Source: Candidatus Latescibacterota bacterium | GTDB lineage: Bacteria > Latescibacterota > UBA2968 > GCA-2709665 | Assembly (NCBI GenBank): GCA_965205485.1 | Contig: OZ242180.1 | Coordinates: 2,176,001-2,240,000 of the forward strand | Direction: 5' to 3' | Length of the DNA: 64,000 nt | Shown: positions 27,750 to 47,045 of the stretch, piece by piece | How the letters are laid out: each line of letters opens with the position of its first letter | How positions within the stretch are numbered: the first letter of the stretch is position 1 | The notes under the pieces: generated by a model | What the model was told of the DNA's origin: nothing | Database searches by the model: none | The model's input: only the letters and a program-made list of their open reading frames with translations | Program-made: the position numbers and the translations under genes

Positions 27750-27816
27750 CTCAGCTGGTTAGAGCGCCTGCCTTACAAGCAGGAGGTCACTGGTTCGAAT
27801 CCAGTATCGCCCACCA
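27740..27816 (+). tRNA. tRNA-Val (anticodon TAC)
   Basis: GGGCGGTTAGCTCAGCTGGTTAGAGCG-CCTGC-CTTACAA-GCAGG-AGGTCACTGGTTCGAATCCAGTATCGCCCA-CCA; cloverleaf with encoded CCA. Confidence 0.97.
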
Positions 27817-29723: not shown

Positions 29724-31001
29724 ATGCAAGCGAAAACTGTATATATACTGAGCTCGTTCTGTTCGTCGGTTCTGTCTACGATTGCACTTACCGTGGTGAT
29801 GGTGTACCAGGTCGACGTGGTGAAACTTGATCCGCTGCAACTGGTTTTGGTTGGTACGACACTGGAGGTAACGGCATTTCTGTTTGAAGTTCCTACCGGG
29901 GTGGTTGCAGACCTCAAGAGCCGAAGGTTGTCGGTGATTCTGGGGTATCTATTGAACGGGTTGGGCCTGATGATGATGGGTTGGATACCCCTGTTTTGGG
30001 CCGTGGTCGCCAGCAACGTGATCCGCGGGATTGGTGGAACCTTCATGAGCGGCGCGTATGAGGCCTGGCTGGTGGATGAGACGATTGCCCAACACGGCAA
30101 CGACAATTCCGTTGGTATGGTCTTCTTGCGCGCTTCACAGGCGTCAAGCGTGGGATCGATCATCGGGATTCTGTTGGGCGTCGCCCTCGGATGGCAGGAT
30201 GTATCCGTACCGATTCTGATTGGGGGCGGCGGGCTGTTGGTCGTTTCAGTTGCCCTGTGTTTCACAATGCGCGAGCGTGGGTTCAAGCCCGTGCCCGTGG
30301 AACAACGAGAAACATGGGTTTCGATGCGCGCCACAATCTCAACGGCCATCCTGCAGATTCGAAGCGAGCATTACCTGTTGTTGATCCTTGCGATCTCGTT
30401 TCTTTACGGTCTGTCGAGCGAAGGATACGATCGGCTGACCGCACCCCACCTGCTTCACGATTACGAGCTGCCGTTTAAAGAGACGGTGGTACCTGTCGCC
30501 TGGTTCGGGCTCATCATCCTGGTCTCATCCATAATTTCACTCGTGATGACCGAGGCTGCCAAAAGAGGTATCAACCTCAGGAGTGGGACGTCTGTTTCGG
30601 CGGCGCTGATGTTTTCGAACGCAGGGATCGTCGCCGCGATTCTCTGCCTGGCATGGACGAATCACTTCTGGGGAGCGCTGGCGGCGATCTGGGTAATCAG
30701 GGGGTTAAGGCATACTGGAGGGCCGCTGCTTGTCACGTGGTACAATCAGCAAATCAAGGATTCGAGCGTGCGGGCAACGGTGTTGTCGGTCCGGGCCCAG
30801 GCCGACTCAATCGGACAGATCGCCGGGGGTCCTCCAGCGGGCGTGGTTGGCAGATGGCTTTCCGTAAGGTGGGGTATCACCACGTCGGCGGCGATGCTTT
30901 CGCCGGTCATTCCGATATACGGATATGCAGCTGTCCGCATATCGAAGGAAACTCCCGAGGACTCGGAATCCGTCCCGGCAGAGACTGACACTGAAAAATG
31001 A
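29724..31001 (+). CDS. MFS transporter (TetA(P)-like)
   Basis: About 12 TM; FEVPTGVVADLKSRRLS, SGAYEAW, RATVLS. Confidence 0.88.
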   Translation: MQAKTVYILSSFCSSVLSTIALTVVMVYQVDVVKLDPLQLVLVGTTLEVTAFLFEVPTGVVADLKSRRLSVILGYLLNGLGLMMMGWIPLFWAVVASNVIRGIGGTFMSGAYEAWLVDETIAQHGNDNSVGMVFLRASQASSVGSIIGILLGVALGWQDVSVPILIGGGGLLVVSVALCFTMRERGFKPVPVEQRETWVSMRATISTAILQIRSEHYLLLILAISFLYGLSSEGYDRLTAPHLLHDYELPFKETVVPVAWFGLIILVSSIISLVMTEAAKRGINLRSGTSVSAALMFSNAGIVAAILCLAWTNHFWGALAAIWVIRGLRHTGGPLLVTWYNQQIKDSSVRATVLSVRAQADSIGQIAGGPPAGVVGRWLSVRWGITTSAAMLSPVIPIYGYAAVRISKETPEDSESVPAETDTEK

Positions 31002-31915
31002 AGAACTTTTCAATCGAGCATTGGGAGATGGACGAGGCAGCCCGGCTGCAAGCCGTATGGGAGGTGGCAACAGCCAGCGCGCCGTTCGCGTATCCCGTTG
31101 AGCCGGCGGAATTCGCGGCCGGAATCATCCCCATGGAATCCGACGACGAGTCCTGTGCCTCGGCCCAGTCACAAAAGCTGCTCGCGGCGTCAGACACTAC
31201 GGGACCGGTCGGATTCGTACATCTTTGTGTCGGTAGCGACGTCGAGGTCGACGGCGAGAATATCGAATGCGGAATCATCCGCTTTCTTGCATTTTCACCT
31301 CGTCGAAGGGAAGTCGGTCAGGCACTCCTCAGCGACGCGGAACAGATCTTCCAATCGGAGGGTCTCACACGCGTAGACGCCTTTTCCCTGTACCACGGAT
31401 ACCCCTTCCACAATCATAAAGTCGGCATCCTTTCGTCTCGTATGACTCACGTTTCGTCCCTGCTTAAGGAGAATGGGTACAGGGCTCACGATGGACACGT
31501 GACGATGCAACGATCGTTGGATTCCGCGCCCCTTCCCGATCCGCATCAAGGCGTCAAGCTCATAATCGAAAGGTCAGACGGCGCCGGCGCCCTCCCCAAC
31601 ATCCGGGTTAAGGCCGCAATCGACGGCCAGGCCATAGGCAGCTGTCGTTCCCAATCCGGACGTACCTACGCGGATCAGGATTCGTTGGACTGGCTCAGTT
31701 ATACACGTTGGATAGGCGTGAAGGAGAGTTATCGCCGGAAGGGAATCGGCAGGCATCTCCTGCGGCGCGCACTTCACGAAATGCGGTGTGAGGGCTACAA
31801 ATCGGCTGCATTGAATTGCCGGGAGGAAAATCATGCAGCCGTGTCACTTTACCTGTCGGAGGGCTATAGAACCCGCGACACTTCACTCGCCTACGTCAAA
31901 GATCTGCGTACGTGA
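30998..31915 (+). CDS. Tandem GNAT N-acetyltransferase
   Basis: GVKESYRRKGIG, NHAAVSLYLSEGY; ATGA overlap with MFS gene. Confidence 0.85.
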   Translation: MKNFSIEHWEMDEAARLQAVWEVATASAPFAYPVEPAEFAAGIIPMESDDESCASAQSQKLLAASDTTGPVGFVHLCVGSDVEVDGENIECGIIRFLAFSPRRREVGQALLSDAEQIFQSEGLTRVDAFSLYHGYPFHNHKVGILSSRMTHVSSLLKENGYRAHDGHVTMQRSLDSAPLPDPHQGVKLIIERSDGAGALPNIRVKAAIDGQAIGSCRSQSGRTYADQDSLDWLSYTRWIGVKESYRRKGIGRHLLRRALHEMRCEGYKSAALNCREENHAAVSLYLSEGYRTRDTSLAYVKDLRT

Positions 31916-32224
31916 CGCTGGTAATAGTAAACGCCTCTGGTCGCGTCAGCTGGGCACGGCGAAGAGGTAATACGTCATCTACTCCTACTGTTAACTTTCT
32001 TAGCATCCTGGTCTGACGAGGCCTGCCTGGTCGGCGGACGTTAAAGGCTTTGAGTCAAGCCTCCTTCTGAGAGCGCTCAACTTGTGACTTGATTAGACAC
32101 ACAAAACCATTTGCGCAACAACACCCTCTGTGCCGAGATTAACGGGACGATTACCCTTTGAGAATTCGCGAACAATGGAGAGGGCAAGGGAGCGCATCAG
32201 ACGGATGGGCTCATTGTGGTTCTC

Positions 32225-33214
32225 TCAGTTTCGCTTTTTCGCACGTGAGCGCTCGGCCGTCAGTTCGGGGTAATCATCGCGGTGCCAAAACGCCGTTCGT
32301 TCGACCTGCGCATAGAAGTCTGTCGAAGGCTCGAACCCGAGTTCCTCCCGGGCCCGGGAGATGTCCGCGAGGGTATGAGCGACGTCGCCGACGCGCGGCG
32401 GTCTACGTTCAAGCCGGAGTTCTCTGCCTGCAACCTGTTCGAGGACGTCTTTAACCTCGAGCATGGAGTGGGCTTCGCCCTGGCCCACGTTGAGCACGTC
32501 GGCTTCAAACCCGCGCCCGCGAGTCGCGGCAGCGATATTCGCGTCCACAACGTTGTCGATAAAGCAGAAGTCCCGAGTCTGTGTGCCGTCGCCCTCCAGG
32601 AACGGCTGGTACGACGGATCCACGTACAGAGCATAGGGCCACGCCGATAATACGGTGGAGTAGGCGCCTCCAAAAACCGCGCCGGGTCCGAACACGTTGA
32701 AATATCGCAGGCTGACCGCATCCAGACCGTACAATTGATGGAACATGTCGCACCACTGCTCACCCTGAAGTTTCGCCAGCGCATAAGGCGATTGTGGGGC
32801 GGATGGGTATGCCTCCGGCGTGGGAAGGACCGAAGCCTCGCCGCAAACCGCACTGCTGCTGGCGAAAACCAGGCGGGTTCTCCCAATCAGGTCGGATTTC
32901 AAAATCGCATTGAGCACGGACAGGGTTCCCATTACATTCGCTTCCGCGCTGTGCAGTGGATTCCGGACCGAGTAGGGAACTCGTGGCTTTGCGGCCAGGT
33001 GGAGGACCGCGTCCGGAATCGTGTTATTGAGAAGTCGCACGAACCAGTCCGCATCCACGACGCTGTGGACGTGATACTGAACGCCCTCGACGCCGTTGGC
33101 TGGCGTTCCGGAAGACAGATCGTCAACACCGAAAACGTCATGACCGAGTTCCATGAGACGACGGCATGTACTCTGCCCGATAAAACCGTTGCTGCCTGTA
33201 ACGATAAACCTCAT
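32225..33214 (-). CDS. NAD-dependent nucleotide-sugar epimerase/dehydratase (WbpP-like)
   Basis: TGSNGFIG, ASSS, YALAK (YxxxK), LRYFNVFGP, GDGTQTRDF. Confidence 0.92.
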   Translation of the reverse strand: MRFIVTGSNGFIGQSTCRRLMELGHDVFGVDDLSSGTPANGVEGVQYHVHSVVDADWFVRLLNNTIPDAVLHLAAKPRVPYSVRNPLHSAEANVMGTLSVLNAILKSDLIGRTRLVFASSSAVCGEASVLPTPEAYPSAPQSPYALAKLQGEQWCDMFHQLYGLDAVSLRYFNVFGPGAVFGGAYSTVLSAWPYALYVDPSYQPFLEGDGTQTRDFCFIDNVVDANIAAATRGRGFEADVLNVGQGEAHSMLEVKDVLEQVAGRELRLERRPPRVGDVAHTLADISRAREELGFEPSTDFYAQVERTAFWHRDDYPELTAERSRAKKRN

Positions 33215-33432
33215 TGTGCAAAACCTCGATTTCCGTACCCGAAAAAGGCTTTGGTGAAACAGTCCGCTCGGTGTAATGACCGTCAGATACCATCATTATA
33301 CGGAACACATGGCGATTGGTTGCATCTCGCCGTCGTTTGACCCGTTTTCTGAGGCAGGACAATATACAAATCCGTTGGATTTTCGCAACGTATGCAAGAA
33401 TCGCAACAGAATACCGGAGGACTTTCAGTCCC

Positions 33433-34221
33433 ATGTCCGACCCATTCACTGCAACTTTCGAAAGACTCTGGATCGGCTTCAGGGCTAGCTGGTGCGACAG
33501 TCACGACCTGGGCGGCGCCACCGCGTTCAGCCACGAGGAGGTCAAAGCGGCCATGCTGCACCGCGTCGTACGGATTGACGTGCCCGGCGCGATGGTGGAC
33601 GCAATGATCGACCGCGCTCTTGCCCACTTCAGGGAACGGGATTTCGACTGCGCGTTCACCCTGTCGCCGCTGGACCGCCCCGCTGATCTGGCCGAACGGC
33701 TGAAGAGCAGGGGATTCACGTTTGAGATGCAGGCGGTGGCGATGCGCTGCGACCGGTGCGTCCGACCCTCGGTCTCCGAATCCGTCGAGGTTGAAGAACT
33801 CGATCCGCGCCGGTACGGCGTCTGGGCAGACATCATGTGCCGCAGCTTCGAATTTCCGGACGACGTGGGCGCTCTTGGAAGAGGGGTACTGAATATTCCT
33901 GAAGTAAGGCTCTACCTCGCGTACGTTGATGGCGCGCCCGCGGGAACCGCGTTGCTCTATTCCAGATACGGTCTGGGTTGTGTCGACTTTATTGGCACGT
34001 TGCCTCAATACCGCCGAAGGGGTGTTGCGTCCGCCGTGACCGCCCGTGCGGTCGCGGACTCCCGTTCGATGGGCAATCGATGGACGGGCCTTGAAGTAGT
34101 GGCCGGCAGCGCCGCCGAAAGGGTCTACAGGAGGATCGGGTTTCGTCCCGTACACGATCGCCCGCGTTATGTCAGGAGCACGAGTCAGGCCGACCGTGAA
34201 TCCGGGCCTGACCGAGCCTGA
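33433..34221 (+). CDS. GNAT N-acetyltransferase
   Basis: IGTLPQYRRRGVA, VYRRIGF; ATG after GGAGG. Confidence 0.85.
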   Translation: MSDPFTATFERLWIGFRASWCDSHDLGGATAFSHEEVKAAMLHRVVRIDVPGAMVDAMIDRALAHFRERDFDCAFTLSPLDRPADLAERLKSRGFTFEMQAVAMRCDRCVRPSVSESVEVEELDPRRYGVWADIMCRSFEFPDDVGALGRGVLNIPEVRLYLAYVDGAPAGTALLYSRYGLGCVDFIGTLPQYRRRGVASAVTARAVADSRSMGNRWTGLEVVAGSAAERVYRRIGFRPVHDRPRYVRSTSQADRESGPDRA

Positions 34222-34398
34222 AAACAGACGTTGAACGGACGCCACGCCGTCGTTCCTGACAGCGACTGGAACGGCAGCCGGGAGCGCGACCAGGCTCCGC
34301 GAACGGCCTGATGCCGCTATTCTGTCAGGGCGGGCAGGAACACGTTTTTTCCGAGTGGATATCGCCCCTTGCTGTGGTCGTGGAATACGATACGTTAA

Positions 34399-34449
34399 TA
34401 TATAATTATATAGTCCTTGACTTGAAATCTTATAGTCAGTATCATTTCC
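34399..34449 (+). promoter_or_regulatory. sigma70-like promoter with AT palindrome and Fur-family-like box
   Basis: TTGACT(34417-22)-17-TATCAT(34440-45); perfect palindrome TATATAATTATATA 34399-34412; 34431-34449 matches the E. coli Fur consensus at 13/19 on the minus strand. Confidence 0.6.
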
Positions 34450-34605
34450 GATCCGGTCCCTGAAGTTAGGCGGATTTTTGTGTCGGCGAACATGACGGTG
34501 GGCGCATCGTCGTGTCCGGCGAGATGTACGGCGCCGATCGTTCCCGTTTTCTGAATCGCCTTCCAGGCGGCCCTTCGCGTCACCCAATGCACTGGAGGAA
34601 ATTGC

Positions 34606-36906
34606 GTGGTACAGCAGACGCTGGTCAGTTTCTTCGACTTTCTCTGGATGTCCGGTCTGCTCCTGGCGCCCATGCTGTTGCTGGGGTTGTTCCTCTCGGG
34701 CCTGATCCATGTATTTATCTCTCGTGAAGCCATCCTCAGGTGGCTCAAGGACGACAGCCTGAAATCCGTTGCCGTGAGTTCGGCCGTGGGCGTCCCGGTG
34801 CCGCTGTGCAGTTGTTCCGTCGTGCCGGTGGTTGCCGAGATGCGAAGGAAGGGCGCATCCCGTTCGTCCTGCATGTCCTTCCTGATAACCGCGCCGGAGA
34901 CGGGGGCGGATTCGATCCTGGTTACGAACGCCTTCTTCGGTTTTATCGCCGCGGTCGTGCGTCCCGTAATCAGCTTCATCACGGCCGTCGTAGCCGGCAT
35001 CTTTTGCATCGGTCTCATACGCAACGGCCACGAAGAAACCGTGTCGGACCATGGCCACGATGAACACGACCATGACCATGACCACGGGCACGATCACGAT
35101 CATGACCACGATCACGGTTCGCACGAGCCCCTCATTCCGGAAACTGACGACTGCTACGTGAGCTTTTCGCGATTGAAGGGCCTTTTCGTGCAGTGGTTGA
35201 AGAGCGTCGCCACGGTGGCCGGACGGTGGAAGTCCATTTCGTGGGTGAAACCGGCATTCTACCGTGACGCTCTGGAGGCGGAAGAGGCCGGAAAGACTTC
35301 TCCGGGGGACACGTCCACCGAGGGTCACGCACTCGATTTCAAAAAGCTGGTGAAGCACATCTTTCACTACGGTTTCGTTGAGATCGCCGACGACATCCTC
35401 TTTGCGCTGCTGGTTGGCGTGGCCCTGGGCGGGGTACTTTTCCTGGTGATTCCGGGCGACCTGATGACAAACGAATACGCCCGCTGGGTCTCCTATCCCG
35501 TCATGGTGCTGGTCGGCGTTCCTCTTTATATCTGCGCATCGGCGAGCACGCCGATCGCCGCGGCCCTTGTCGCGAAGGGATTCAGCCCGGGTGCGGCGCT
35601 GATCTTTCTGATGACCGGGCCGGCCACCAATACCGGTACCATCGCGATCATCGTCAGCCAGTTCGGCGCACGATTCGCCACCATATATGTAGCAGCGGTC
35701 ATCGCGGTCACGGTCGCCCTCGGTATTGTGATCGACGCGCTGCTCCTGGCCACCGGCCTGACGATTCCGGTGTACCTCGGCCCCTCCGAGTCGCCGACGA
35801 TACAGTTCCTTCAGTGGGGCTCGGCCCTGGTTCTCGTCGCTCTCATTATCTGGCGTTTCCGGGCGGGCGCGCTCCGCAGTGGCTGGGAGGACCTGCTTCT
35901 CAATATACGACCCCTGGCGAAAACATGGGCTCAGGCCTGGGAGCGCCTCACGCGCGGACGTAACTTCAAGGGGGTCATATCTCCCGGCACACCGATGGGA
36001 AAGATGCTCTGGGGATTGCTCCTCCTCCTGTTCCTTGCCAGCGGATTCACAGCCGTACCCCCCAATGCGGTAGGCTACGGCCTGCTTCTCGGCGAGGTCT
36101 ACTGGCGTGACATCCAGCCGGGACTGAGCTATCTCGCCCCATGGCCCTTCGTCAAGGTCGACAAGTGGCCGGTACGGGAAGTGAAGTCCATCCTTTGTGA
36201 AACTCCCGAAGAGTACGTGTCCGGCGATCTCAATCTGATTTCCCTGACCGTCAACGTGCAATACAGGGTCAAGGATCCCTACGTCTATCACTATCGGACG
36301 GAGGAGCCGAAGAGAGTCATCGCCGACGTCGTCAAGGCCCACGTGCGTTCCTTCATATCCGCCCGGGACCTCGAAAGACTGCTGAACGTGCATCGCGCAA
36401 CGCTCGAAGATCATCTCACCAGGTCCTTCGACGTGGACGTGCACTTCGCAAATTCGGTTCTGAAAACCGTTGAAATCGTCAAGGTCAACCTGCTGGATGT
36501 GAGCCCGGTGGCGGAAACCATGAGCGCTTTCAGGGACGTCTCCAGCGCGCAGGAAGACCGGGAGCGGATCATTGTCAACGCGCAGCGCTTCCTCGTGTCG
36601 CTGGTCCCCCAGGCGCACGGAAACGCGGCGTGGGAGATACAGCAGGCCGACGGCGAGGCCTATCGGAGAGTCAAGACGGCGGCCGCTGAGGCCGATGCCA
36701 TATCCACGGTGTCCAGGGCTGTAAGAACCGCGCCAGGCGTACTGAGGAACATGCTCTGGCGGGAGAAACTCGAGACGGCGTTATCCGGAAATCCCAAGAT
36801 CATCGTGCCCAACAAGAAAAGCCTCGAAAAGGTCGCGCTTTGGAAGAGAAAGACATCAGGGGTCAACCATGGCGCGCGGGCCGGCCACGGAAAGAAGGGC
36901 CACTAA
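34606..36906 (+). CDS. ArsP/DUF318 (SO_0444-type) metal permease with His-rich loop, fused to a C-terminal HflK-like SPFH domain
   Basis: GVPVPLCSCSVVP, SFLITAPETGADS, (HD)n loop, PLYICASASTPIAAAL, GPATN; then TM+GFTAVPPNAVG...QPGL..PWP, SGDLNLI, AFRDVSSAQEDRER. Confidence 0.88.
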   Translation: MVQQTLVSFFDFLWMSGLLLAPMLLLGLFLSGLIHVFISREAILRWLKDDSLKSVAVSSAVGVPVPLCSCSVVPVVAEMRRKGASRSSCMSFLITAPETGADSILVTNAFFGFIAAVVRPVISFITAVVAGIFCIGLIRNGHEETVSDHGHDEHDHDHDHGHDHDHDHDHGSHEPLIPETDDCYVSFSRLKGLFVQWLKSVATVAGRWKSISWVKPAFYRDALEAEEAGKTSPGDTSTEGHALDFKKLVKHIFHYGFVEIADDILFALLVGVALGGVLFLVIPGDLMTNEYARWVSYPVMVLVGVPLYICASASTPIAAALVAKGFSPGAALIFLMTGPATNTGTIAIIVSQFGARFATIYVAAVIAVTVALGIVIDALLLATGLTIPVYLGPSESPTIQFLQWGSALVLVALIIWRFRAGALRSGWEDLLLNIRPLAKTWAQAWERLTRGRNFKGVISPGTPMGKMLWGLLLLLFLASGFTAVPPNAVGYGLLLGEVYWRDIQPGLSYLAPWPFVKVDKWPVREVKSILCETPEEYVSGDLNLISLTVNVQYRVKDPYVYHYRTEEPKRVIADVVKAHVRSFISARDLERLLNVHRATLEDHLTRSFDVDVHFANSVLKTVEIVKVNLLDVSPVAETMSAFRDVSSAQEDRERIIVNAQRFLVSLVPQAHGNAAWEIQQADGEAYRRVKTAAAEADAISTVSRAVRTAPGVLRNMLWREKLETALSGNPKIIVPNKKSLEKVALWKRKTSGVNHGARAGHGKKGH

Positions 36907-37063
36907 GAGGCAGACGAAGATTTTTGAGGCACCCAATTCATATCCCTGAAGGAGTGCCGGATACCACGCCATTCGATTAGCGCCCGAGAAACCTGAACCG
37001 CAACGGGTCAGCGGGTCGATCGTTCACGCACGATCCGGACGTCCTAACTGACGAGGCAACGCA

Positions 37064-37954
37064 ATGACGCTCAAGAAAGCCACGATGACCGCGGCCATCG
37101 CCGTGATTGCCGGCGCGATCGTCTACGACAGCATCTACATTATCCACGAGACTCAGCAGGGCGTTCTGACGCACTTCGGAAAGATTTCGCCTCCGGTGAG
37201 ACAACCGGGGCTTCACCTGAAGTGGCCCCGCCCGATCTCCAGGATCTACAAGGTGGATCGGCGCATCCATACGCTGACCGACATCCCTCACGAACTGATC
37301 ACCGACGATCAGAAAAGCGTTCGCGTCGACGGGTACCTGCTCTGGAGGACCGTAGATCCCATTCTGTTCGTCGAGGCGATCCGCACCGGAAAGAACGCCC
37401 TGGAGCGCCTGCAGGACCTCTATCTCTCAAGCAGTGGGATTGTCGTCAGCAACAAGTCCCTGGACGCCTTTATCGGGCTGGGGCTGGAGCACGAAGACCT
37501 GAACGAGGCATCACGGGAGATTCACGCCAGGATTGCGCCGATTGCGAGAGAAAGCTACGGCATCGAGGTCATCGAAGCGGGAATCGTGGAATACACGCTG
37601 CCCACGGAGAACCGACCGAGCGTCATTCAGCGTATGATCGCGGAACGGGCGCGTATTGCCGCCCGGTATCGCAGCGAAGGCGAGGAACGGGCCCTGCGAA
37701 TCGAGGCGCTGGCCATCAACGAACACGAGAAGCTGCTGGCCGACGCCCACGCGGAGGCGACTGCCATTCTAGGCAAGGCCGAGGCCGAGGCGATGGCGGT
37801 GCTCGGCAAGGCGTACCGGCAGGACCCGGGATTCTACAGCTTCATCCGCGCCCTGGATAGTTACGACCTTATCATAGACCGGAACACGACGTTGATGCTT
37901 CCGGCCGACAACGAGTTGTTCAAGTACCTCAACAGCAGGTCCACGCCCCGATAA
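37064..37954 (+). CDS. HflC-like SPFH/Band 7 protein
   Basis: TM, HFGK..PGLHLKWP, VDGYLLWR, RMIAERARIAARYRSEG, DPGFYSFIRALDSY. Confidence 0.9.
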   Translation: MTLKKATMTAAIAVIAGAIVYDSIYIIHETQQGVLTHFGKISPPVRQPGLHLKWPRPISRIYKVDRRIHTLTDIPHELITDDQKSVRVDGYLLWRTVDPILFVEAIRTGKNALERLQDLYLSSSGIVVSNKSLDAFIGLGLEHEDLNEASREIHARIAPIARESYGIEVIEAGIVEYTLPTENRPSVIQRMIAERARIAARYRSEGEERALRIEALAINEHEKLLADAHAEATAILGKAEAEAMAVLGKAYRQDPGFYSFIRALDSYDLIIDRNTTLMLPADNELFKYLNSRSTPR

Positions 37955-37972
37955 ACCGAGAGTTCGCGCGAA

Positions 37973-39403
37973 ATGAGTGAACAGACATCATTGCCACGGA
38001 GTACGCGGATCATCTACGCCGTATTCGATTACTACTCGAAACACCGGCGGCGAATCATGGTATGGGCCGCTGCCGCGGTTGTGGTCGGTATCCTGGCCAG
38101 CGGGTTCTACATCGTCAAGAAGGAGGAACTCGGCGTCGTCCTCCGGTTCGGGAGGGTCGTGAATACCAACGTCCGGCCCGGTATACGCTACTGCATTCCG
38201 ATCATCGACGTGGTACACATCCGCAAGGTCAAGCGGGTCACCCGATACCGGGTGGCCAGCAAGGAAGGAAACAAGGTCAACTTTACCATATTGTCGGGAG
38301 ACGTGAACCTTCTGGAAGTGGACGTCGCCGTCCAGTACCGGATCGACAACCTCAGAAACTTCCTTTTCATCTCCAGCGATCCCATCGCGATGCTGACCGT
38401 TTACACCAGGGAGGAACTGGTCGACGCTCTGGGCGAGAATTTCATCGACCTGATTCTCACCTCGAATCGAAACATTATTCAAAGCAGGCTGTTCGACCGG
38501 ATTACCGCCCGGCTCGAGAATCGCGATATCGGGATAGAGCTTGTTTCGCTGGACATCGTCGACGTTAAGCCGATCGAGGAGACCATCGCCGCATTCCGGG
38601 ACGTCAGCGACGCGTTCGCGGAGCGGGCGAAGGCGGTCAGCGACGCGAATCGACAGAAGGAGCAGCTGATTGCACGCAGCCGGGGACAGGCCGAAGCGCT
38701 GGTATTGAACGCGAAAGCCAGGGCCCGGGAAAGGGTCGTGCAGGCGAAGAGCAGCGCAGGGTCGTTCTCCGCGCTCCTGGGCGAATACAGGAAACAGCCA
38801 TCGCACGTCCGCATCACCCGCTATTGGGACCGCATGAGGAAGATCTTTTCCGAGGCGAGCCTGGCTGCAGTCAACCCTGCCAATCAGTCGGCCATCGACA
38901 TCAACATGATAGACGGCGCCGGCGACGGATTCACGCCGGCGGACCTGGCGCTGGGGGAGCCGCCCGCAGGAACCGGCGCGGCGGCCGGCAGGATGGCGTT
39001 ATCGTCAACGCAAATGCCCGATATACATAAAATAGAAAATGTCGACGAGGACAGACTCACGCTGGACGGCCAATTTCACAAGGTGCGCGCGGAACGCGAT
39101 CACCTGGACGTGGCCAACCCCCGGTCGCTCATTTTCGACACGCCTTCGATATTCTCCCACAGCCACGTTGTGCGTGGCAAACGGTTCAGCCGGCAGGAGC
39201 AGGAGAAGCCGATGGTGGAGGTGCTCCCCGCGGAGGATGCCGGGTCGACGACGCAGGCGACGCCTGGAATCAAATCCGGGAAGAAGACGAAGGCCGGCTT
39301 CAAGCAGGGCAAGAAAGCGAAGGGCGCCGTCAAGCAGGGGAAGCAGGACGCGGCGGCTGGCAAGCCGGCAAAGACGGGGGAGGGTGGCGCCACGTCGAAG
39401 TAG
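37973..39403 (+). CDS. HflK-like SPFH/Band 7 protein with long C-terminal tail
   Basis: SGFYIVKKEELGVVLRFG, SGDVNLLEVDVAVQYRI, AFRDVSDA, ARSRGQA; Lys/Gly-rich tail. Confidence 0.88.
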   Translation: MSEQTSLPRSTRIIYAVFDYYSKHRRRIMVWAAAAVVVGILASGFYIVKKEELGVVLRFGRVVNTNVRPGIRYCIPIIDVVHIRKVKRVTRYRVASKEGNKVNFTILSGDVNLLEVDVAVQYRIDNLRNFLFISSDPIAMLTVYTREELVDALGENFIDLILTSNRNIIQSRLFDRITARLENRDIGIELVSLDIVDVKPIEETIAAFRDVSDAFAERAKAVSDANRQKEQLIARSRGQAEALVLNAKARARERVVQAKSSAGSFSALLGEYRKQPSHVRITRYWDRMRKIFSEASLAAVNPANQSAIDINMIDGAGDGFTPADLALGEPPAGTGAAAGRMALSSTQMPDIHKIENVDEDRLTLDGQFHKVRAERDHLDVANPRSLIFDTPSIFSHSHVVRGKRFSRQEQEKPMVEVLPAEDAGSTTQATPGIKSGKKTKAGFKQGKKAKGAVKQGKQDAAAGKPAKTGEGGATSK

Positions 39404-39433
39404 ATGTGACACGCCTCGGGAAGAGGGTAGCGA

Positions 39434-40588
39434 ATGGCGGCACATATCGTCAGTGGGCTATTGGCATTCTGGCTCGCCCTGCTGCCGGTCGCAACGCCCG
39501 CGGCGGAGACAGGTATCAGCGATACGACGATTGTCTTCGGTCAGAGCGCTTGTTTCTCCGGGCCGAACAGGCAGTTGGGTTTCAATTATCGCGCGGGTAT
39601 TCGCGCGGCCCTGCAAGAAGCGAACCGTCGCGGCGGCGTTAACGGCAGGTCACTCAGGCTGATTTCCCTCGACGACGCGTACGAGCCCGATCAGGCAGCC
39701 GCCAACGCGGAGCGATTCGCATCCGAAAACGACGTATTCGCCGTCATCGGCGGCGTGGGTACGCCGACGGCGAAACGCATCGCGCCGGTATTGAAATCGG
39801 CAAATATACCCTTCGTGGGTCCCTTCACCGGCGCCGCGTTCCTGCGCAACGCCAGGCGGTTTCCAAACGTCGTCAACCTGAGAGCGGGCTATCTGGACGA
39901 GACACGCGTTCTGGTGGACCACATCCTGAGGAAGCGCGGCAAGAAGCGGTTTGGAATCATCTACCAGGACGACGCTTTCGGGCGTTCCGTCCTCAAGAAC
40001 TACAAGTCGGTGCTCGACGGAAAGGGCATTCCCATTCTGGGAAAAACCGCTTTCTCTCGAAACACCCATGCCGTTCAGGCCAGCCTGTTCGCCCTGGCCA
40101 AGGCCGACCTGGACGCCATCATGATCGTCGGCGCATACGCGTCCAACTCTGAAATTATCAACCTGGCGCACTCTCTCGGCCACAGATACATAATGGCCAA
40201 TCTGTCGTTCGTTCTGTCCTACGAGTTGAAGAAGAGGATCGATGCACCGAGCGACCGAATACTGGTCTCAGAAGTGATGCCCGATGCCGACGACACCGGC
40301 ATGCGGGTGGTCAGAAGCTTTCAACGGGCTCTGGGAGCCGTGGGCGCTGCAAGCGGTGAACAGGACGGGAAATTCGGTGTCAACGAGGTGTCCCTCGAGG
40401 GATATATTCTGGGACGCTTCGCCATCGAGGTGCTGGAGCGCATGGGCGAGACGTTGACGCGGGAGCATTTTCTGCAACAGGCATTGTCGTCCGGACCGGT
40501 AGCGATTGACGATTGGACGCTCGCCTTCGAGCCTGGAACCAACACGGGCTCGCGCTACGTCCGGTTGATCGATCTCGGAGGAGATTGA
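39434..40588 (+). CDS. Periplasmic substrate-binding protein (LIV/type 1 fold)
   Basis: Signal peptide, FGQSACFSGP, GGVNGR, DDAYEP, GGVGTPT, YQDDAFG. Confidence 0.88.
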   Translation: MAAHIVSGLLAFWLALLPVATPAAETGISDTTIVFGQSACFSGPNRQLGFNYRAGIRAALQEANRRGGVNGRSLRLISLDDAYEPDQAAANAERFASENDVFAVIGGVGTPTAKRIAPVLKSANIPFVGPFTGAAFLRNARRFPNVVNLRAGYLDETRVLVDHILRKRGKKRFGIIYQDDAFGRSVLKNYKSVLDGKGIPILGKTAFSRNTHAVQASLFALAKADLDAIMIVGAYASNSEIINLAHSLGHRYIMANLSFVLSYELKKRIDAPSDRILVSEVMPDADDTGMRVVRSFQRALGAVGAASGEQDGKFGVNEVSLEGYILGRFAIEVLERMGETLTREHFLQQALSSGPVAIDDWTLAFEPGTNTGSRYVRLIDLGGD

Positions 40589-40591
40589 CCC

Positions 40592-41080
40592 TTGAAAAAG
40601 GTGGATGAATTTTCAGCCGAAGAAATCGGCGAAGAGTGGTTGCGGGAGCTCTACAAGGTCGTCCACATGCGGCGCGGCACGATGTTCAGGCTGATTACGG
40701 AGTCGGCCCGCCTGCTGCTCTTGGGCAATGCGGGCGGCGCGGCATTGATCATCGGATTCATGAGTTCGCCTTCCGGAGTCGAAGACGCGGCCTACCACTG
40801 GCTGGCCCTGGCGACGCTGCTCGTGTTTGCGACCGGGACCCTGGCATCCGCGCTCACAATGATTCTTGTTGCCATGGTCTCGGTAAAGGAAGCGCACAGC
40901 GCCGAAGAGGCATTGAAGAGTTTCGCGGATCGGGACATCGATCGCACCCAGGTGCTCTTCACACTGGGCGAACAGACGTTTCGTATCGCCGACTATTCTT
41001 TGGTTTCGGGCGCGGTCAGTATGGGTGGGTTCATGCTGGGCGGGATGAGCAGTATCCTGCTCCTGATGCTGTTCTTCTGA
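40592..41080 (+). CDS. Hypothetical membrane protein (about 3 TM)
   Basis: TTG start 3 nt after the binding-protein stop with GGAGG SD; three hydrophobic segments. Confidence 0.7.
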   Translation: MKKVDEFSAEEIGEEWLRELYKVVHMRRGTMFRLITESARLLLLGNAGGAALIIGFMSSPSGVEDAAYHWLALATLLVFATGTLASALTMILVAMVSVKEAHSAEEALKSFADRDIDRTQVLFTLGEQTFRIADYSLVSGAVSMGGFMLGGMSSILLLMLFF

Positions 41081-41319
41081 GTCGCAACGGGTCGATACGG
41101 GCAAGTGATCGAAGGGGGCAACCCGGCGTCGGAAGCGAGGGTTGCCCCTGAAAAATTCCGGTGATTCGGCGCCTTGATCGACCGCTGCGACGATTCACAC
41201 AAACAGTTCCGAAGCTGCATCTCGCAGGGAGACAGTCACGACCTGCGGACCTGTTCGGCAACCTCGTCCGCAGGTGCGGGACAGGACAACAACTGAAGCC
41301 AACGCAAGGTCAGGTCAAC

Positions 41320-42180
41320 GTGGATTCAGACAGTCTGCTCATCATATCGGGATATTCACTGGGCATCTTCGCCGTTTCCTTCGCCGGCGGGAAACTGGCC
41401 GTCCTGGGATCCATGACCCACACGAAGATTCAGATACTGATGAGCCTCGTGGCGGGTTTTATCCTCGGCATCGCCATGTACCACCTCTTGCCACACAGTC
41501 TCGAACGGATTTCCGGACCTGGGAACGTGGAGAAGGCTGTCGCGTTGGTGGTTTTCGGCATGGTCCTGATGATCTTCCTCCTGCGCGTGTTCCACTTCCA
41601 TCAGCACGACTTCAGCAATGAAGCCGGCGAACTGTACGATCATCACGACCACAGTGATTCCGGCGGACACTCGGGAAGTCTGGTAGGAGTTGCGATGGGC
41701 CTGGGTGTGCATACCGTAACCGAAGGCGTCGCCCTGGGTACCAGCATGCGGATCAGCTCGCCGCATGAAGACGGAGGGGCGCTGCCTGCACTCGGCGTCT
41801 TCCTCGCCATCCTGCTCCACAAGCCGCTTGACGCTTATTCCATTGTCGGCATGATGAAGTTCGCGGGATACGGCCCGCGCACGCGTACGGCGGCGAATGT
41901 CGGATTCGCCCTGCTGTGTCCGCTGGTGGCTCTCGCCAGTTTCTGGGGCGTGGGGTTGCTCGGCCCGGACGACGGCTCGGTCACGGGCTACGTGCTTGCA
42001 TTTGCCGCGGGTGCGTTTTTGTGCATCGCGCTGAGCGACCTGATGCCTGAAATCCAATTCCACAGCCACGACCGCGGCAAGCTCATTGCATCCCTTCTCG
42101 TGGGAATCGGTCTCGCCTACGCGCTCTACTTCGTTGAATCCAGCGCCGTTCATGGAACGGAAGCGCAGCACGGACACTGA
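41320..42180 (+). CDS. ZIP-family divalent metal transporter
   Basis: HLLPHS, His-rich loop, GVHTVTEGVALG, ILLHKPLD, FAAGAFLCIALSDLMPE; GTG start inferred. Confidence 0.9.
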   Translation: MDSDSLLIISGYSLGIFAVSFAGGKLAVLGSMTHTKIQILMSLVAGFILGIAMYHLLPHSLERISGPGNVEKAVALVVFGMVLMIFLLRVFHFHQHDFSNEAGELYDHHDHSDSGGHSGSLVGVAMGLGVHTVTEGVALGTSMRISSPHEDGGALPALGVFLAILLHKPLDAYSIVGMMKFAGYGPRTRTAANVGFALLCPLVALASFWGVGLLGPDDGSVTGYVLAFAAGAFLCIALSDLMPEIQFHSHDRGKLIASLLVGIGLAYALYFVESSAVHGTEAQHGH

Positions 42181-42238
42181 ACATAACGGTGCGGCGTCTC
42201 GACTTTCAATGGTCCGTATGCATCCGCAAAGACCCGCG

Positions 42239-43156
42239 ATGACATCGCCGAAAAGCCCTCTCAGTCCAAAACTGCAGGACCTGATCACGTCCATCGACAG
42301 ATCTCCCGTCGTATCCGTTGCCCCTGTAAAAGATGAACGAGACGACCTGTTGGTGACGTGCAAGTCAGGTCGACGACATCTACTTCGAATCGAAGACGGT
42401 CCGATCCCGCTTCTTCGGCAAAAATGGGCGTACGAGCAGTTGCGCAAGGGTGGTGTGCCGTGTCCGCGCGTGGAGGCAACGATTGAACCCGATACGGATT
42501 TTCCAAAAGGCTGTCTGCTGATATCCTGGATCGAGGCCGTGCCCTCATCCGAGATCATCCGAAGAGAAGGACCGGGACAGAAAAGCCAGGCGCTTTGTCG
42601 AGAACTGGGCCGGGCGTTGCGCCGCCTACACCATGTGAACGTGGCCGGGCCGGTCCCGGATTTTATTTTCAAGCACACCAGAGCAGGCGCGTATCAGCGC
42701 GTGGAGGATTTCGTCGGGCAGCTTCGTGAGGCGGAGTTGATCGATAAGGATTTCGAGAGAAGATACCGCCGACTGTTTGAGAAGTACGCTGGGTCCGTTC
42801 CCGAAGAATTGACCAGGACACTGTGTTTTACGGATACCCACTTCAGCAATATCATCGTTTTTGATCGTCCGAAGCCGAAAGTCGCTGGGTTTGTCGACGT
42901 GGAGGAAATCGGCGTCGGCTGGCCAATGTGGGACTTCACAAATTGGGAGTGCTGGGGCTTGCGCTTTGGTCTGTCATGGACGCGAGATCATATTCTGGAG
43001 GGGTATGGCGAGATAGACATGGAGATGTACCGGTTGGCTCTACTGGTTCGACTGTCCCGCCCGTTTACATTTGTCGGCTCGACCCGGGAACAGATTATCC
43101 GTGCAGTCGAGTCGGAGGACATTGCAGATTTCAAACTGGAAAAACTCTATCAGTAG
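42239..43156 (+). CDS. Aminoglycoside phosphotransferase-like kinase
   Basis: GVPCPRV, LGRALRRLH, FTDTHFSNII, GFVDVE, WDF; start uncertain. Confidence 0.75.
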   Translation: MTSPKSPLSPKLQDLITSIDRSPVVSVAPVKDERDDLLVTCKSGRRHLLRIEDGPIPLLRQKWAYEQLRKGGVPCPRVEATIEPDTDFPKGCLLISWIEAVPSSEIIRREGPGQKSQALCRELGRALRRLHHVNVAGPVPDFIFKHTRAGAYQRVEDFVGQLREAELIDKDFERRYRRLFEKYAGSVPEELTRTLCFTDTHFSNIIVFDRPKPKVAGFVDVEEIGVGWPMWDFTNWECWGLRFGLSWTRDHILEGYGEIDMEMYRLALLVRLSRPFTFVGSTREQIIRAVESEDIADFKLEKLYQ

Positions 43157-43237
43157 ATTTCGGAGCGCGATCCGTCGTGGCTGCCGGATCCCCCAAGTGC
43201 AAGAACCGATTCAGAACTGGAAACCCACGGCCATCGA

Positions 43238-44368
43238 TCACGCAAGCGCGCGCAACCCCGCGTGGATCTTTTCCGCGTACTCCTCGGTCCTTCCGGGCGT
43301 ATACACGTCCATTGGCATCACGACCATGCGGGGCACCGCGCGATCGGCCACCGGCGTCACCCCCTTTCCGTAACGCGCACTGCCCGTGTAGTGGGGGCAC
43401 CGGATGGGGCACCCTTTGCCGTACGCCAGGACCTCCGTGAAAATCGGATCTTCGGCGGCGGAGCGTCTCTTGTACCCGATCGAGACGGGACAACCGTGTT
43501 CGACCATCGTCTTCTGAAAACGCTCCACCGAAATCCCCTCTCGGTCGCCTTCGAATCGAAACGCGACCGCGTGATACGCGTTGACGCACCCGTCCGCCAC
43601 GCGCTGCGGCGCCAGCCATGGCGTCTCCCTGGCGGCTTCACGGTAGAGCGACCCCGCCTTGTGATGCGCCGAGATAATCCCGTCGGCCCTGTCCATCTGC
43701 GCCAGCATCACCCCGGCCTGCAGTTCGGTCATGCGGTAATTCCATCCAAGGGTCGTCTTGATGATTCTCATTTCCTGCATTTTTTCGACCATGTCGGCCC
43801 GATCGGTCACCGCCATGCCGCCGTCCCCGCTGGTGAGATGTTTGGCCTCCTGAAAACTGTATGAACCGATCGACCCCAGCGTTCCCAGGGGCGTGCCTCT
43901 GTACGAACCCCCGACGCCGTGCGCCACGTCTTCGATCACGGGCAGTTCATATTTGTCCGCCACCCGGAGAATCCCGTCGTAGTCCGGCGGGTTTCCCCAC
44001 ATCGGCGTACAGATGACGGCGCCCGTGTGTTCCGTGATGCACGCCTCGAGCGAATCGGGATCCATATTCCAGCTGTCCTCATCGATGTCGCAGAATACAG
44101 GTACACCGTTGTGATACATCACCGCTGCGCCACCGAAGTGGACCACGGGATCGCAAACGACTTCCACGCCCGGCCCGACGCCCGCAGCCGCCACGGCCGT
44201 GTGCAGCACGCTCATCGCACTATTCATTGCCAGAGCGTATTCCGCCCCCACCCACGCTGCAAATCGCTCCTCCAGCCGGGTCGTGAATTTACCGGTCTTG
44301 CTGTTCAGCGACCCGCTCGCGATCACTTCCGCCAGGTAGTCCAGCTCCAGCTTTCCGAACCGTTCCAT
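43238..44368 (-). CDS. DegT/DnrJ/EryC1/StrS PLP aminotransferase
   Basis: VIEDVAH, SFQEAKHLTSGDGG, NYRMTELQA; AAGGAGG SD. Confidence 0.92.
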   Translation of the reverse strand: MERFGKLELDYLAEVIASGSLNSKTGKFTTRLEERFAAWVGAEYALAMNSAMSVLHTAVAAAGVGPGVEVVCDPVVHFGGAAVMYHNGVPVFCDIDEDSWNMDPDSLEACITEHTGAVICTPMWGNPPDYDGILRVADKYELPVIEDVAHGVGGSYRGTPLGTLGSIGSYSFQEAKHLTSGDGGMAVTDRADMVEKMQEMRIIKTTLGWNYRMTELQAGVMLAQMDRADGIISAHHKAGSLYREAARETPWLAPQRVADGCVNAYHAVAFRFEGDREGISVERFQKTMVEHGCPVSIGYKRRSAAEDPIFTEVLAYGKGCPIRCPHYTGSARYGKGVTPVADRAVPRMVVMPMDVYTPGRTEEYAEKIHAGLRALA

Positions 44369-44442
44369 GTCGACCTCCTTACGTTTCTTTCTTCGGCCAG
44401 CGGCTGAAGGCGTCGCAGTGTGGTAACGCCGCGTATATCCGA

Positions 44443-45711
44443 TCAACAGCCGACCAGATGCCGGGGAAACTTCGACGTCCGGTAGACCTGTCGTCCCCAG
44501 TCCAGATCTTCGGGGAACAGAAAGCATTTGCCGGCACGCGGATCGATCGGCCTGCCCGCAGACACATGTTCAAGGATTGCGCGCTGGAGCGACGTGTCGC
44601 GGGGCGCGTTGCTCAGGTCATCCGCATCATTCCCAAACACAGTTTGCAGAATCGACCGTGCCGAGATGCCGCTTGGAACCATGTAGAACTCCCGCAGGAA
44701 TCGAACCAGATTCGATCCGGACGGAAGCCAGTCTTCCAGTTGCGTATCCAGCAGCCAGGAACCACAGAAGAACGCCCTGTACGGGCGTTCGGGGAAATGG
44801 CGGGGGAAAAAGTCCATCGCGGCCCGGAAGGAGTCACCGCACGCGGCGTGATCCAAAGGTATGCCGCCGGGAATATGAAAATACAGGACGGGGTCCCCGG
44901 GTTCCAGCACAGGATCCCAATCGGCCGCGGCAAGCGTCACCATTTCTTCGGATGCGCGTCCGGTCGGAAGGATGGGGTGGCCGGCAATCCTGTCTCCCGT
45001 GATCCGGAGCCGGGAGGTCCACGCGGCCGGGGCGTCTCCGCCTCGGTGCCGCTGGCCGTCGCGTCGATAGGAAACGCCGGCTTCGCTCAGCGCGATGACC
45101 GTGGACGCCTCCCTGTGGCGATACACGCGAAACGGGTCGTTCATCACATTGAACTGGTGTTCAAGGCGGCCCAGAGCGTAGATGTCTCCGCGGAGGAAAT
45201 TGGCCAGCCAGCGCGCCGCGTGACCGTCCAGGCCCCACCGATCGAAGATTTCGCTGCAGGTTTCGCCCCTCAGATAAATCTGTTCCATACTGTCCCGTAC
45301 GACCTTTTCGGGAATCCCGTGCGCGCGGTGCGTCGCTCGCATCTGGCGAAACCGCGACAGCAGCACCAGCAGGTAGAAGAGACCTGCCAGTTCTCCCAGA
45401 GGGCCCTTCATGCACGGCCAGTCGTCCGCCAGGCGGCTGGAATATCCTTTCACATGGTAGAGACACCAGTGGCAATGCCACGCCAGAGCGCACAACGCGG
45501 GGACTCGCGACACCACGTCCGCCGCGGCGACGGCGGCCTTCACGATGTCTTCCGGGAGAAAAATTCCCCGGCAGGCCTCGCTCACGAAGTCCGTTGACAG
45601 AAAGGGGACCTCGCCGTCCGGCATCGAACTCCGTGAGGCCTCCCACGACGGCTCGAGGACCTTTCGACTCTGCTCGATATCCAGATCCGATACCACCCGG
45701 TTCAGATCCAT
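44443..45711 (-). CDS. Acyltransferase-domain protein (DUF5596/GNAT_C-like)
   Basis: LGRLEHQ, FHIPGG.PLD, CGSWLLD, SNLVRF, TSLQRAI. Confidence 0.75.
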   Translation of the reverse strand: MDLNRVVSDLDIEQSRKVLEPSWEASRSSMPDGEVPFLSTDFVSEACRGIFLPEDIVKAAVAAADVVSRVPALCALAWHCHWCLYHVKGYSSRLADDWPCMKGPLGELAGLFYLLVLLSRFRQMRATHRAHGIPEKVVRDSMEQIYLRGETCSEIFDRWGLDGHAARWLANFLRGDIYALGRLEHQFNVMNDPFRVYRHREASTVIALSEAGVSYRRDGQRHRGGDAPAAWTSRLRITGDRIAGHPILPTGRASEEMVTLAAADWDPVLEPGDPVLYFHIPGGIPLDHAACGDSFRAAMDFFPRHFPERPYRAFFCGSWLLDTQLEDWLPSGSNLVRFLREFYMVPSGISARSILQTVFGNDADDLSNAPRDTSLQRAILEHVSAGRPIDPRAGKCFLFPEDLDWGRQVYRTSKFPRHLVGC

Positions 45712-45833
45712 ATCCGCTCTTCCTCTGCTCCATCCGACCAAGAGAGCCTGTGCGAGGGAAACAGACGCACTGTCGTAGAACCCAGGCACGCACAAAAATA
45801 GGCTCATTCAATATGCAATTTTAAATTAGCCTA

Positions 45834-47045
45834 TTATATCCGCACCTTCGCAGTTTCGCCTTCTGATCGGTTGATCTGAAACGCCGATTCGTGGAGGTCG
45901 CGCCACGGAACCAGGCTGCCCCGCGCCCGGCGCTGGTGTTCGTTACCGCCGTAAGCAACGAAGACGGAACCTGGCAAGGGTAAACGTGTGAGATGTTTCT
46001 GTACGCGACCGATGCTGTCAAACAGGCTCGACGACGCCGTGTTGGCCGACTTGGCCTCGACAAGCGCGATGTTGCGCGGGTACTCGATGATGAGGTCGGC
46101 CTCGGCGCCGTTTCGGTCCCTGTAAAACGACATACCGCCCATTTCGCCCTGGTTGGTCCTGCTTTTTGCGATCTCCGAGACAACCCAGGTCTCGAAAATC
46201 GGTCCGCGCAGTGGATGATTGCGCAGCTGCTCGGGTGTGCGGATACCGAGCAGCCAGCAGACGAGCCCTGTGTCGTAGAAGTGCAGTTTGGGCATCTTTA
46301 CAAGACGTTTACGAAGGTTGCCGTGAAATGCCGGTAGCCTGAAGGTGATGAAGCTGGTCTCCAGGATGCTGAGCCAGGCTTTCGCACCTGGCTGGGATAT
46401 TCCGCAATCGTCGGCCAGCGAGGAGAGATTGAGCAACTGAGCCGTACGGCCGGCGCACAATTCCACGAATCGCTGGAATGTCCCAAGATCTCCCACGTTT
46501 CTGATTGTCCGCACGTCGCGTTCGATATATGTGGCGACATAGGAGCGGAGCCAGTCGGATGGGTCCAGACCATCGTTGAATATGCGGGGATATGAACCGG
46601 CAAAGAGGGATTCTTCCAGACTCTCCGGAAACCGGGGGAACCGTTCGACTTCCCTGCGGGTGAGTGTCGGCAGGTAGTATATCGCCGTCCTTCCGGCCAG
46701 CGACTGGCTGACCGAATCGAGCAGAGCGAGGTTCTGCGAGCCGGTCAGGATCCAGCGTCCGGGCGCCGGGTCATCGTCGATAATGCCCTGCAGGTAGGAA
46801 AGCAGGTCCGGGGCCCGCTGTACCTCGTCGATGATGACGCCAGCCGGAAACTGAGCCAGAAAGCCGCGTGGGTCTTCTACCGCAAAGGCGCGAACGTCCG
46901 GAGACTCGAGTGTTGTATACCTGTGCTCGGGAAAAATGGCCCGGCAAAGCGTCGTCTTTCCGCTTTGCCGGGGACCGGTAAGCGTAATGGCAGGGAAAGC
47001 TCCCGCGGCCTTTTTGAGTCTGGGCGCCAGGTCACGTGTGATCAT
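45834..47045 (-). CDS. AAA+ ATPase with DUF4143 domain
   Basis: TGPRQSGKTT, IIDEVQ, LTGSQ, SLAGR, PKLHFYDTG, FETWVVSE, EADLI..EAK. Confidence 0.93.
   Translation of the reverse strand: MITRDLAPRLKKAAGAFPAITLTGPRQSGKTTLCRAIFPEHRYTTLESPDVRAFAVEDPRGFLAQFPAGVIIDEVQRAPDLLSYLQGIIDDDPAPGRWILTGSQNLALLDSVSQSLAGRTAIYYLPTLTRREVERFPRFPESLEESLFAGSYPRIFNDGLDPSDWLRSYVATYIERDVRTIRNVGDLGTFQRFVELCAGRTAQLLNLSSLADDCGISQPGAKAWLSILETSFITFRLPAFHGNLRKRLVKMPKLHFYDTGLVCWLLGIRTPEQLRNHPLRGPIFETWVVSEIAKSRTNQGEMGGMSFYRDRNGAEADLIIEYPRNIALVEAKSANTASSSLFDSIGRVQKHLTRLPLPGSVFVAYGGNEHQRRARGSLVPWRDLHESAFQINRSEGETAKVRI

Follow-up and report, generated by a model that had tools for sequence, protein, structure and literature searches.

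A metal permease fused in frame to an SPFH protomer marks a putative three-gene HflK/HflC-type kit with interchangeable metal-transporter cargo

We describe a six-gene cassette in a 64-kb stretch of the genome of Candidatus Latescibacterota bacterium (GCA_965205485.1, contig OZ242180.1, positions 2,176,001-2,240,000; hereafter the window, numbered from 1). Its first gene joins an SO_0444/ArsP-type permease to an HflK-like SPFH protomer, which we call K1; genes 2 and 3 encode an HflC-like subunit and a second, unfused HflK-like subunit (K2), and genes 4 to 6 a binding protein, a small conserved protein and a ZIP transporter (Table 1). Judged by sequence comparison, the fusion is real, old and widespread, and it appears to define a three-gene HflK/HflC-type kit in which the metal-transporter cargo is interchangeable. 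We favour, with moderate confidence, a reading in which genes 1-3 form an accessory ring of the HflK/HflC type, which would hold its own metal transporter and give it shelter, with K2 as a cargo-free spacer. An earlier note on this DNA, made from the letters alone, had described six co-oriented genes and no ftsH in the window, and both points stand: the six open reading frames lie on the plus strand where it had placed them, the 64-kb window contains no ftsH, and the single-contig host genome has its ftsH at C1:4608640, far outside the window.

Two Pfam domains occupy gene 1 in one frame, ArsP_1 at residues 17-377 (E = 1.7e-44) and Band_7 at residues 503-659 (E = 1.5e-11), and this domain search bears out the proposal that the permease runs on in frame into an SPFH domain. 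The protein scores above the cut-off of the SO_0444 family profile (NF033936; 320.1 bits against 300), and the motifs it was said to carry are all present: CSC (C68-S69-C70), YICAS (with C310) and a His/Asp loop. On the Band 7 profile (PF01145, cut-off 23.6 bits) the three SPFH proteins score 45, 81 and 62 bits. One contig spans the permease-SPFH junction gap-free in each of four runs out of four, from four studies, and in all 120 of the best homologues, which are 62-98% identical, the two permease halves and the SPFH part occur together. Since the contigs that bridge the junction come from four studies and the homologues share the fusion, it is not an artefact; both misassembly and a frameshift are ruled out as its origin, and it is neither confined to this assembly nor lacking support, the two weaknesses that the earlier note had allowed for.

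The fusion extends well beyond these homologues. It is complete, SPFH part and two permease halves included, in 112 of the best 150 representatives at 50% identity, with identities as low as about 30%, and a cluster of 1191 members in the ESM Atlas has ArsP_1 in 100% and Band_7 in 99% of them. A GTDB scan, from which we took the best 80 of 626 matches, gives 67 loci of close relatives; these are kin, two of them from one genome, and counts over them are not counts of independent events. Full fusions stand at 34 of the 67, in seven named phyla and in unnamed bacteria. Among the matches listed, the holders of the fusion are mostly sponge or marine metagenomes, with no RNA data sets. The phyla are intermixed on the permease tree, a pattern that points to horizontal spread. 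A phage or plasmid element is not supported: IMG/VR has two loci, neither of them an ArsP fusion with a trio, the 40 listed plasmid matches include no ArsP fusion, and the genes flanking the cassette are common to about ten close genomes.

HflC, K2, the binding protein and gene 5 are kept in 31/31 full fusions whose downstream DNA reaches 4.2 kb or more, the remaining three of the 34 being ended by a contig edge. At unfused permease loci with room, HflC, K2 and an intact binding protein are found in 0/27 and gene 5 in 2/27. ZIP is present at 23/30 full-fusion and 25/27 unfused loci with room; by this gene content it tracks the permease, not the scaffold. For distant relatives (about 30% identity), 12 of 80 metagenome loci show the fusion, the others being unfused or too short. 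HflC is the next gene in all 11 distant fusions with downstream DNA (locus L151 included), and K2 is found in all ten with room, one of them frameshifted and one cut by a contig end; genes 4-6 are not found at the distant loci as operon members. Since the distant fusions keep the K-C-K trio alone, the conserved core is three genes. The distant loci and the gene content of the unfused loci rule out six genes as a single conserved unit, which is how the earlier note had drawn the operon: ZIP goes with the permease, and genes 4 and 5 belong to the close clade only. The survey of other genomes that it had proposed finds the fusion and the three-SPFH set conserved, and lost together. Two arrangements of the cassettes deserve mention in their own right. 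One Binatia contig (G004:C84) holds two facing ArsP-SPFH cassettes about 8 kb apart (L151 and L059), one of the close and one of the distant clade, with ZnuA/ABC-3 genes between them. In one distant subclade (L072, L074, L075) two more genes lie upstream of the fusion, an HflC-like fourth SPFH gene and one of the acetamidase/formamidase family.

The HflC subunits tie the trios together. The HflC proteins of trios with ArsP, CDF and P1B-ATPase cargo form one clade, with support 100/99, apart from 12 housekeeping HflC, a small sample that is mostly proteobacterial; this tree uses a mixture model and keeps two close-clade rows, with the Pseudomonas rows and seven of the nine close-clade rows, which have a long branch, left out. 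With all 20 trio rows other than the ATPase ones the trio clade has support 95/94, and without the long-branched close-clade and Pseudomonas rows 100/99. A search for HflC across Pseudomonadota returns almost only housekeeping pairs, which served as outgroup. Gene 2 passes the HflC equivalog profile (TIGR01932; 155.7 bits against a cut-off of 134.4), yet it groups outside housekeeping HflC and is 32% identical to the host's own. The host has a separate hflK-hflC pair (C1:3706211-3708009), to whose products the window subunits are 26-32% identical, and this pair and the HflC clade together rule out that the trio is the host's housekeeping hflKC. On the HflK side, the ArsP-fused subunits fall outside a starred group that holds housekeeping HflK, the K2 proteins and the CDF and ATPase fusions. 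A single clade of all fused subunits is neither rejected nor shown (approximately unbiased test, p = 0.58). The simplest reading of the sequence comparisons would be a single trio lineage with exchanged cargo.

Two further kinds of cargo occur on the same trio. A CDF-SPFH fusion is found in 67 of 100 listed matches, and the CDF site residues H47, D51, H153 and D157 are kept in 67, 62, 68 and 63 of 68 rows, respectively. Both CDF loci that we saw (L070, and L068 on an Aquibium oceanicum plasmid) have the K-C-K order, with a CDF membrane domain-HflK fusion, HflC and HflK followed by a peptidyl-prolyl isomerase together with a heavy-metal ATPase. A P1B-ATPase-SPFH fusion is found in 120/120 listed matches, the named ones mostly Planctomycetota, with CPC in 118/120 and DKTGT in 120/120; among 121 genomes of the phylum of G002 it occurs in three, followed by HflC and then HflK in 3/3, and a scan of viral contigs has none. 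These cargo motifs look like those of functional transporters. Pseudomonas-type trios are found in four of five chosen Pseudomonas-like genomes, and both of those that we checked have a P1B ATPase downstream; the trios would correspond to P. aeruginosa PA2437-2439 beside hmtA, and the PaFlo5-7 genes would be this PA2437-39 operon. In this type (L192-L195) the first SPFH protein begins with a 330-residue, six-helix domain that matches no Pfam family, and the N-terminus of HflC is rich in His. Cultured carriers include Aquibium oceanicum (on a plasmid) and Symmachiella dynata; P. aeruginosa is probably a further cultured carrier.

Structure prediction gives the fused protein the following layout. 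The AlphaFold model of gene 1 (mean predicted local distance difference test score, pLDDT, 85; predicted template modelling score, pTM, 0.63) has two helical repeats with a disordered His/Asp loop between them, an extra helix at residues 397-419, a basic linker, an anchor helix and an SPFH part with a 73-residue helix (residues 636-708). Charge bias suggests that the loop and the linker are inside and the SPFH part outside. For the K1 SPFH part, Foldseek ranks chains of E. coli HflK/C first (7vhq_E, E = 3e-13; 9cz2). Modelled alone, the permease reaches pTM 0.80, and VIA-align places it nearest Pho90 (Z 12.8), INDY (12.2) and ArsB (11.9), with a root-mean-square deviation (rmsd) of about 5 Å over 270-276 residues; the PDB holds no sequence match to it. 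Among 48,161 chains, ranks 1 to 11 all go to DASS, ArsB, TRAP or AbgT carriers (Z 9.5-12.8, rmsd 5-6 Å), while from rank 14 onward Z is at most 6; a Z below 13 is not decisive for helical bundles, and the match is suggestive of a fold closest to the elevator carriers of the ion-transporter (IT) superfamily. C68, C70, P97, C310, G338 and P339 are invariant in the permease alignments, and the three cysteines, which are unchanged across 120 fusions, are likely metal ligands. The His/Asp loop varies in length and is missing from many distant fusions. For the K1 SPFH part with HflC, the two-chain prediction scores 0.60, against 0.00 for the best control, with runs agreeing in at least 95% of contacts and a partner pLDDT of at least 75; a solved HflK/C look-alike structure exists. 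The mark for this score is reached by 116 of 157 solved and two of 215 mismatched pairs, with 18 of the solved and both mismatched ones at 0.60 or below, and the prediction weakly suggests that K1 and HflC pair.

We propose that K1, HflC and K2 would co-assemble in the inner membrane with a dome in the periplasm; operon, likeness to HflK/C and the weak pair prediction all speak for co-assembly. Each K1 would hold one elevator-type permease through the cytoplasmic linker of about 45 residues. As a spacer, K2 may occupy the remaining HflK positions, and cargo would then stand on part of the ring only. The ring would cluster and shelter the transporter and so aid zinc-type metal homeostasis, transport itself not requiring it. 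What we observe is the fusion and its domain order, the joint retention and loss of the trio, the separate HflC clade, the swapping of cargo and the metal-gene context. A bolder version, which we hold only as a tentative idea, makes the trio an FtsH-independent second lineage of HflK/C cages: a plug-in module with one subunit joined to interchangeable cargo (ArsP permease, CDF domain or P1B ATPase), in which cargo-free HflK would set the copy number per ring, a periplasmic antechamber made by the dome would raise the efficiency of the transporter when metal is scarce, and the binding protein and small membrane protein would feed or gate it in the close clade.

Several findings weigh against the proposal of a sheltering ring. 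K1 and K2 each fall below the HflK cut-off (TIGR01933; 139.4 and 150.7 bits against 159.4, where the host's own HflK has 273), many residues invariant in housekeeping HflK are lost from both, and the HflK-side tree gives no resolved single origin for the fused subunits. The permease stands without the scaffold at 29 of the 67 close loci. Starred branches of the permease tree require 6-7 changes between fused and unfused, and the deletion scars end at differing points (L008, L010, L012/L029, L021, L048, L050, L051 and L063), with seven or more breakpoints. Since fused and unfused permeases alternate on this tree below a fused outgroup (two contig-cut rows being unreliable) and the deletions end at differing points, the scaffold has been lost many times with permease and ZIP retained; by this record it is dispensable in the close clade. 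At 6/11 distant loci (L072, L074, L075, L102, L135 and L139) an acetamidase/formamidase-family gene lies upstream and the scanned neighbours include no metal gene. Finally, a P. aeruginosa SPFH study, whose section list names no metal assay, reports that the mutated SPFH genes are essential neither for growth nor for the stress traits that it tested (PMC13086221). The earlier note had pictured a three-subunit SPFH cage that tethers metal transporters in a dedicated metal-handling compartment. The cage fits the fusion, the conserved trio with its own HflC clade, the metal neighbours and the CDF and P1B fusions, while the tethering of ZIP is unsupported; a compartment needed for transport is unlikely because the scaffold was deleted repeatedly while permease and ZIP stayed. 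In two loci (L012, L029) the deletion yields a chimeric open reading frame of 204 residues in which the start of the SPFH part is joined to the end of the binding protein.

The trio might instead be a dedicated adaptor that encloses FtsH, the fusion bringing in the transporter for regulated turnover or letting a metal-sensing membrane domain tune FtsH, itself a zinc protease. We consider this unlikely. It would suit the descent of the trio from HflK/C, and among the five cassette genomes that we checked, three (G002, G003 and G005, the last small and probably incomplete) have no other adjacent HflK-HflC pair; the host of the cassette described here has its own. The contact residues bear on it in both directions. 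In E. coli HflK, full pull-down of FtsH depends on the triad R141/E142/R185 (10.1101/2025.07.21.662073). Position 141 is basic in 9/9 close and 24/29 distant K1, as an adaptor would have it, and housekeeping HflK is itself variable at positions 141 and 142; position 185 is basic in 10/12 housekeeping HflK, in 0/9 close K1, in 0/9 close K2 and in 15/29 distant K1. On these residues the evidence leans no more than slightly against FtsH binding in the close clade, and the separate clade of the trio HflC and the transporter-like cargo motifs also speak against an adaptor. The text of PMC12048511 names HflK Arg191 as an FtsH contact; residue 191 of the E. coli HflK sequence is Ala and Arg141 fits the later mutagenesis, and we dropped Arg191 in favour of the triad.

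If the ring were instead a periplasmic metal antechamber, the compartment of the earlier note, its dome would trap metal or chelate at the mouth of the transporter, fed by the binding protein, with a gain in affinity under scarcity. In the three named families every cargo is a metal transporter, the binding protein and gene 5 stay with the trio in all intact close loci, ZnuA and ABC-3 genes lie directly after the trio in L071 and L151, and the Pseudomonas-type HflC has its His-rich N-terminus. Against this we set the repeated loss of the scaffold while the permease stays, the lack of binding protein and gene 5 at distant loci, and a binding protein whose conserved residues include one His and no Cys and one of whose three paralogues precedes a sensor-kinase-like gene; E. 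coli HflK/C, moreover, can open on one side (PMC12048511). An antechamber looks distinctly improbable to us. That the fusion merely couples expression and membrane insertion, with the SPFH set doing general membrane-stress work and the transporter as its passenger, the two making no functional contact, would explain why the scaffold is often lost and why several distant loci have non-metal neighbours; three unrelated transporter families fused at the same place of one trio lineage, and the persistence of the ArsP fusion across the 50%-identity representatives, make it very improbable.

As to the metal, a zinc homeostasis role is the likeliest on gene context. The 67 close loci have nearby ZIP (51), CzcA-like RND (26), TonB receptors nearest ZnuD (15), heavy-metal P1B ATPases (9), CDFs (8) and COG0523 (2, confirmed), and L101 has a metal-sensing repressor and a P1B ATPase nearby. 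The earlier note had raised the case of homologous operons lacking metal genes; the close loci do have metal neighbours, and the six distant loci named above are where the scan finds none. Shewanella requires SO_0444 when stressed by Zn or Cu (PMC3219624), and the P. aeruginosa hmtA cluster operon (PA2434-PA2439) is induced by zinc depletion, the three SPFH genes beside hmtA rising 9-14-fold (PMC4542158, Table 2). Uptake and efflux are about even, the tested family member protecting against Zn/Cu excess and the neighbours being of both kinds. At L026, L027, L040 and L043 the unfused permease occurs in two copies, in operons that diverge; one of these carries a His-rich lipoprotein, a ZnuD-like receptor, a COG0523 GTPase, a WD40 protein and ZIP, an island of zinc-starvation type. 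Upstream of gene 1, the sigma-70-type promoter-like site recurs in seven close relatives; four such sites are found, against 2.2 in shuffles. Its spacer contains a weak Fur-box-like repeat with three mismatches to the consensus (two in two relatives), which is not seen in most loci and could at most hint at Fur/Zur control of the cassette. Of the two Fur-family genes in the host genome, one directly follows znuA; this ZnuA-Fur pair (G000:C1:2750409-2751724) is probably the host's zur locus.

Table 1. Features of the cassette, in window positions.
Feature	Positions	Strand	Remarks
Sigma-70-type promoter-like site before gene 1	34417..34445	+	10/12 consensus matches, 17-nt spacer
Gene 1, SO_0444/ArsP permease fused to HflK-like SPFH protomer (K1)	34606..36906	+	766 residues
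Gene 1, permease domain (residues 1-419)	34606..35862	+	two inverted repeats; CSC at residues 68-70, CAS at residues 310-312
Gene 1, His/Asp-rich loop between repeats, putatively cytoplasmic	35020..35145	+	pLDDT <50
Gene 1, basic helical linker (residues 420-462, 9 K/R, putatively cytoplasmic) and SPFH anchor helix (residues 463-478)	35863..36039	+	
Gene 1, SPFH domains and long coiled-coil helix (residues 479-748), putatively periplasmic	36040..36849	+	Foldseek
Gene 2, HflC-like subunit, trio clade	37064..37954	+	296 residues; TIGR01932 above cut-off
Gene 3, unfused HflK-like subunit (K2), long C-terminal tail	37973..39403	+	476 residues
Gene 4, periplasmic LIV-fold binding protein, close clade only	39434..40588	+	384 residues; Peripla_BP_6
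Gene 5, conserved protein with three hydrophobic segments, close clade only	40592..41080	+	162 residues; no known family
Gene 6, ZIP family metal transporter	41320..42180	+	Zip; 286 residues, like homologues; GTG at 41320 the probable start

The remaining features of the cassette are as follows. K2 shares 25% identity with K1 and 30% with the host's HflK, and its 160-residue tail (38900-39403) has conserved His-containing stretches and then a Lys/Gly/Ala-rich end. Gene 4 matches Peripla_BP_6 (E = 7e-47), with 4kv7 as its best PDB match; it has the LIV fold, not that of DctP, and the six cassette genes include no ABC permease or ATPase. A TRAP-like reading, with a binding protein, a small membrane protein and an elevator, was set aside; its support is analogy. 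Gene 5 matches no Pfam family and belongs to a broad unnamed one (30/30 Atlas matches are without Pfam), with a KEAH motif kept in the close clade. A tRNA-Val(TAC) lies at 27740-27816, about 7 kb upstream of the cassette, and Rfam has no match in 30000-46000 of the window.

To our knowledge, FtsH is the only structurally defined bacterial HflK/C client, and the field still asks what an SPFH cage does for the proteins inside it. Here the client is set by the gene itself, in one chain at 1:1, and its output, metal flux, can be measured; natural forms that keep or lack the scaffold, together with three unrelated cargos, are ready controls. The database names "SO_0444 transporter", "HflK" and "P-type ATPase" hide the family. 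The shared HflC clade, the match to an elevator fold and the map of repeated losses are new additions. In listings and abstracts of the openly accessible literature we found no paper on a transporter-SPFH fusion, in agreement with the earlier note, which knew of no characterised permease-SPFH fusion.

Compared with E. coli HflK/HflC-FtsH (7VHQ, 7WI3, 9CZ2; PMC12048511), the cassette has in common the SPFH and coiled-coil fold, K- and C-type subunits, adjacent genes and a single anchor helix; it differs in having three genes, not two, with one HflK-type subunit fused to a polytopic transporter, in the separate clade of its HflC, in an identity of 23-32% to housekeeping subunits and in residue 185, which is not kept. 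With the SO_0444 family (NF033936; PF03773 ArsP_1; PMC3219624) gene 1 shares a score above the cut-off and CSC, the most conserved motif of that family (10.1101/2022.07.06.499078), whereas the C-terminal SPFH fusion, the absence of a metal-responsive regulator gene next to it and the uptake genes in its context set it apart. The P. aeruginosa hmtA cluster with PaFlo5-6-7 (PMC4542158, PMC11761036, PMC13086221) likewise has three HflK/C-like genes and a metal transporter in an operon, and the HflC of such trios falls in the trio clade, on a long branch, in four of five chosen genomes. It differs in that the ATPase is a separate gene and that the look-alike first SPFH protein carries a six-helix domain of no Pfam family; the accessible sections of the SPFH study note the three-gene operon and do not use the word ATPase (PMC13086221). 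The human stomatin cage with aquaporin-1 and UT-B is likewise an SPFH cage tied to transporters, not to a protease, and cages that hold transporters therefore have a precedent; it is eukaryotic, with a ring from a single gene and non-covalent clients (PMC12407830).

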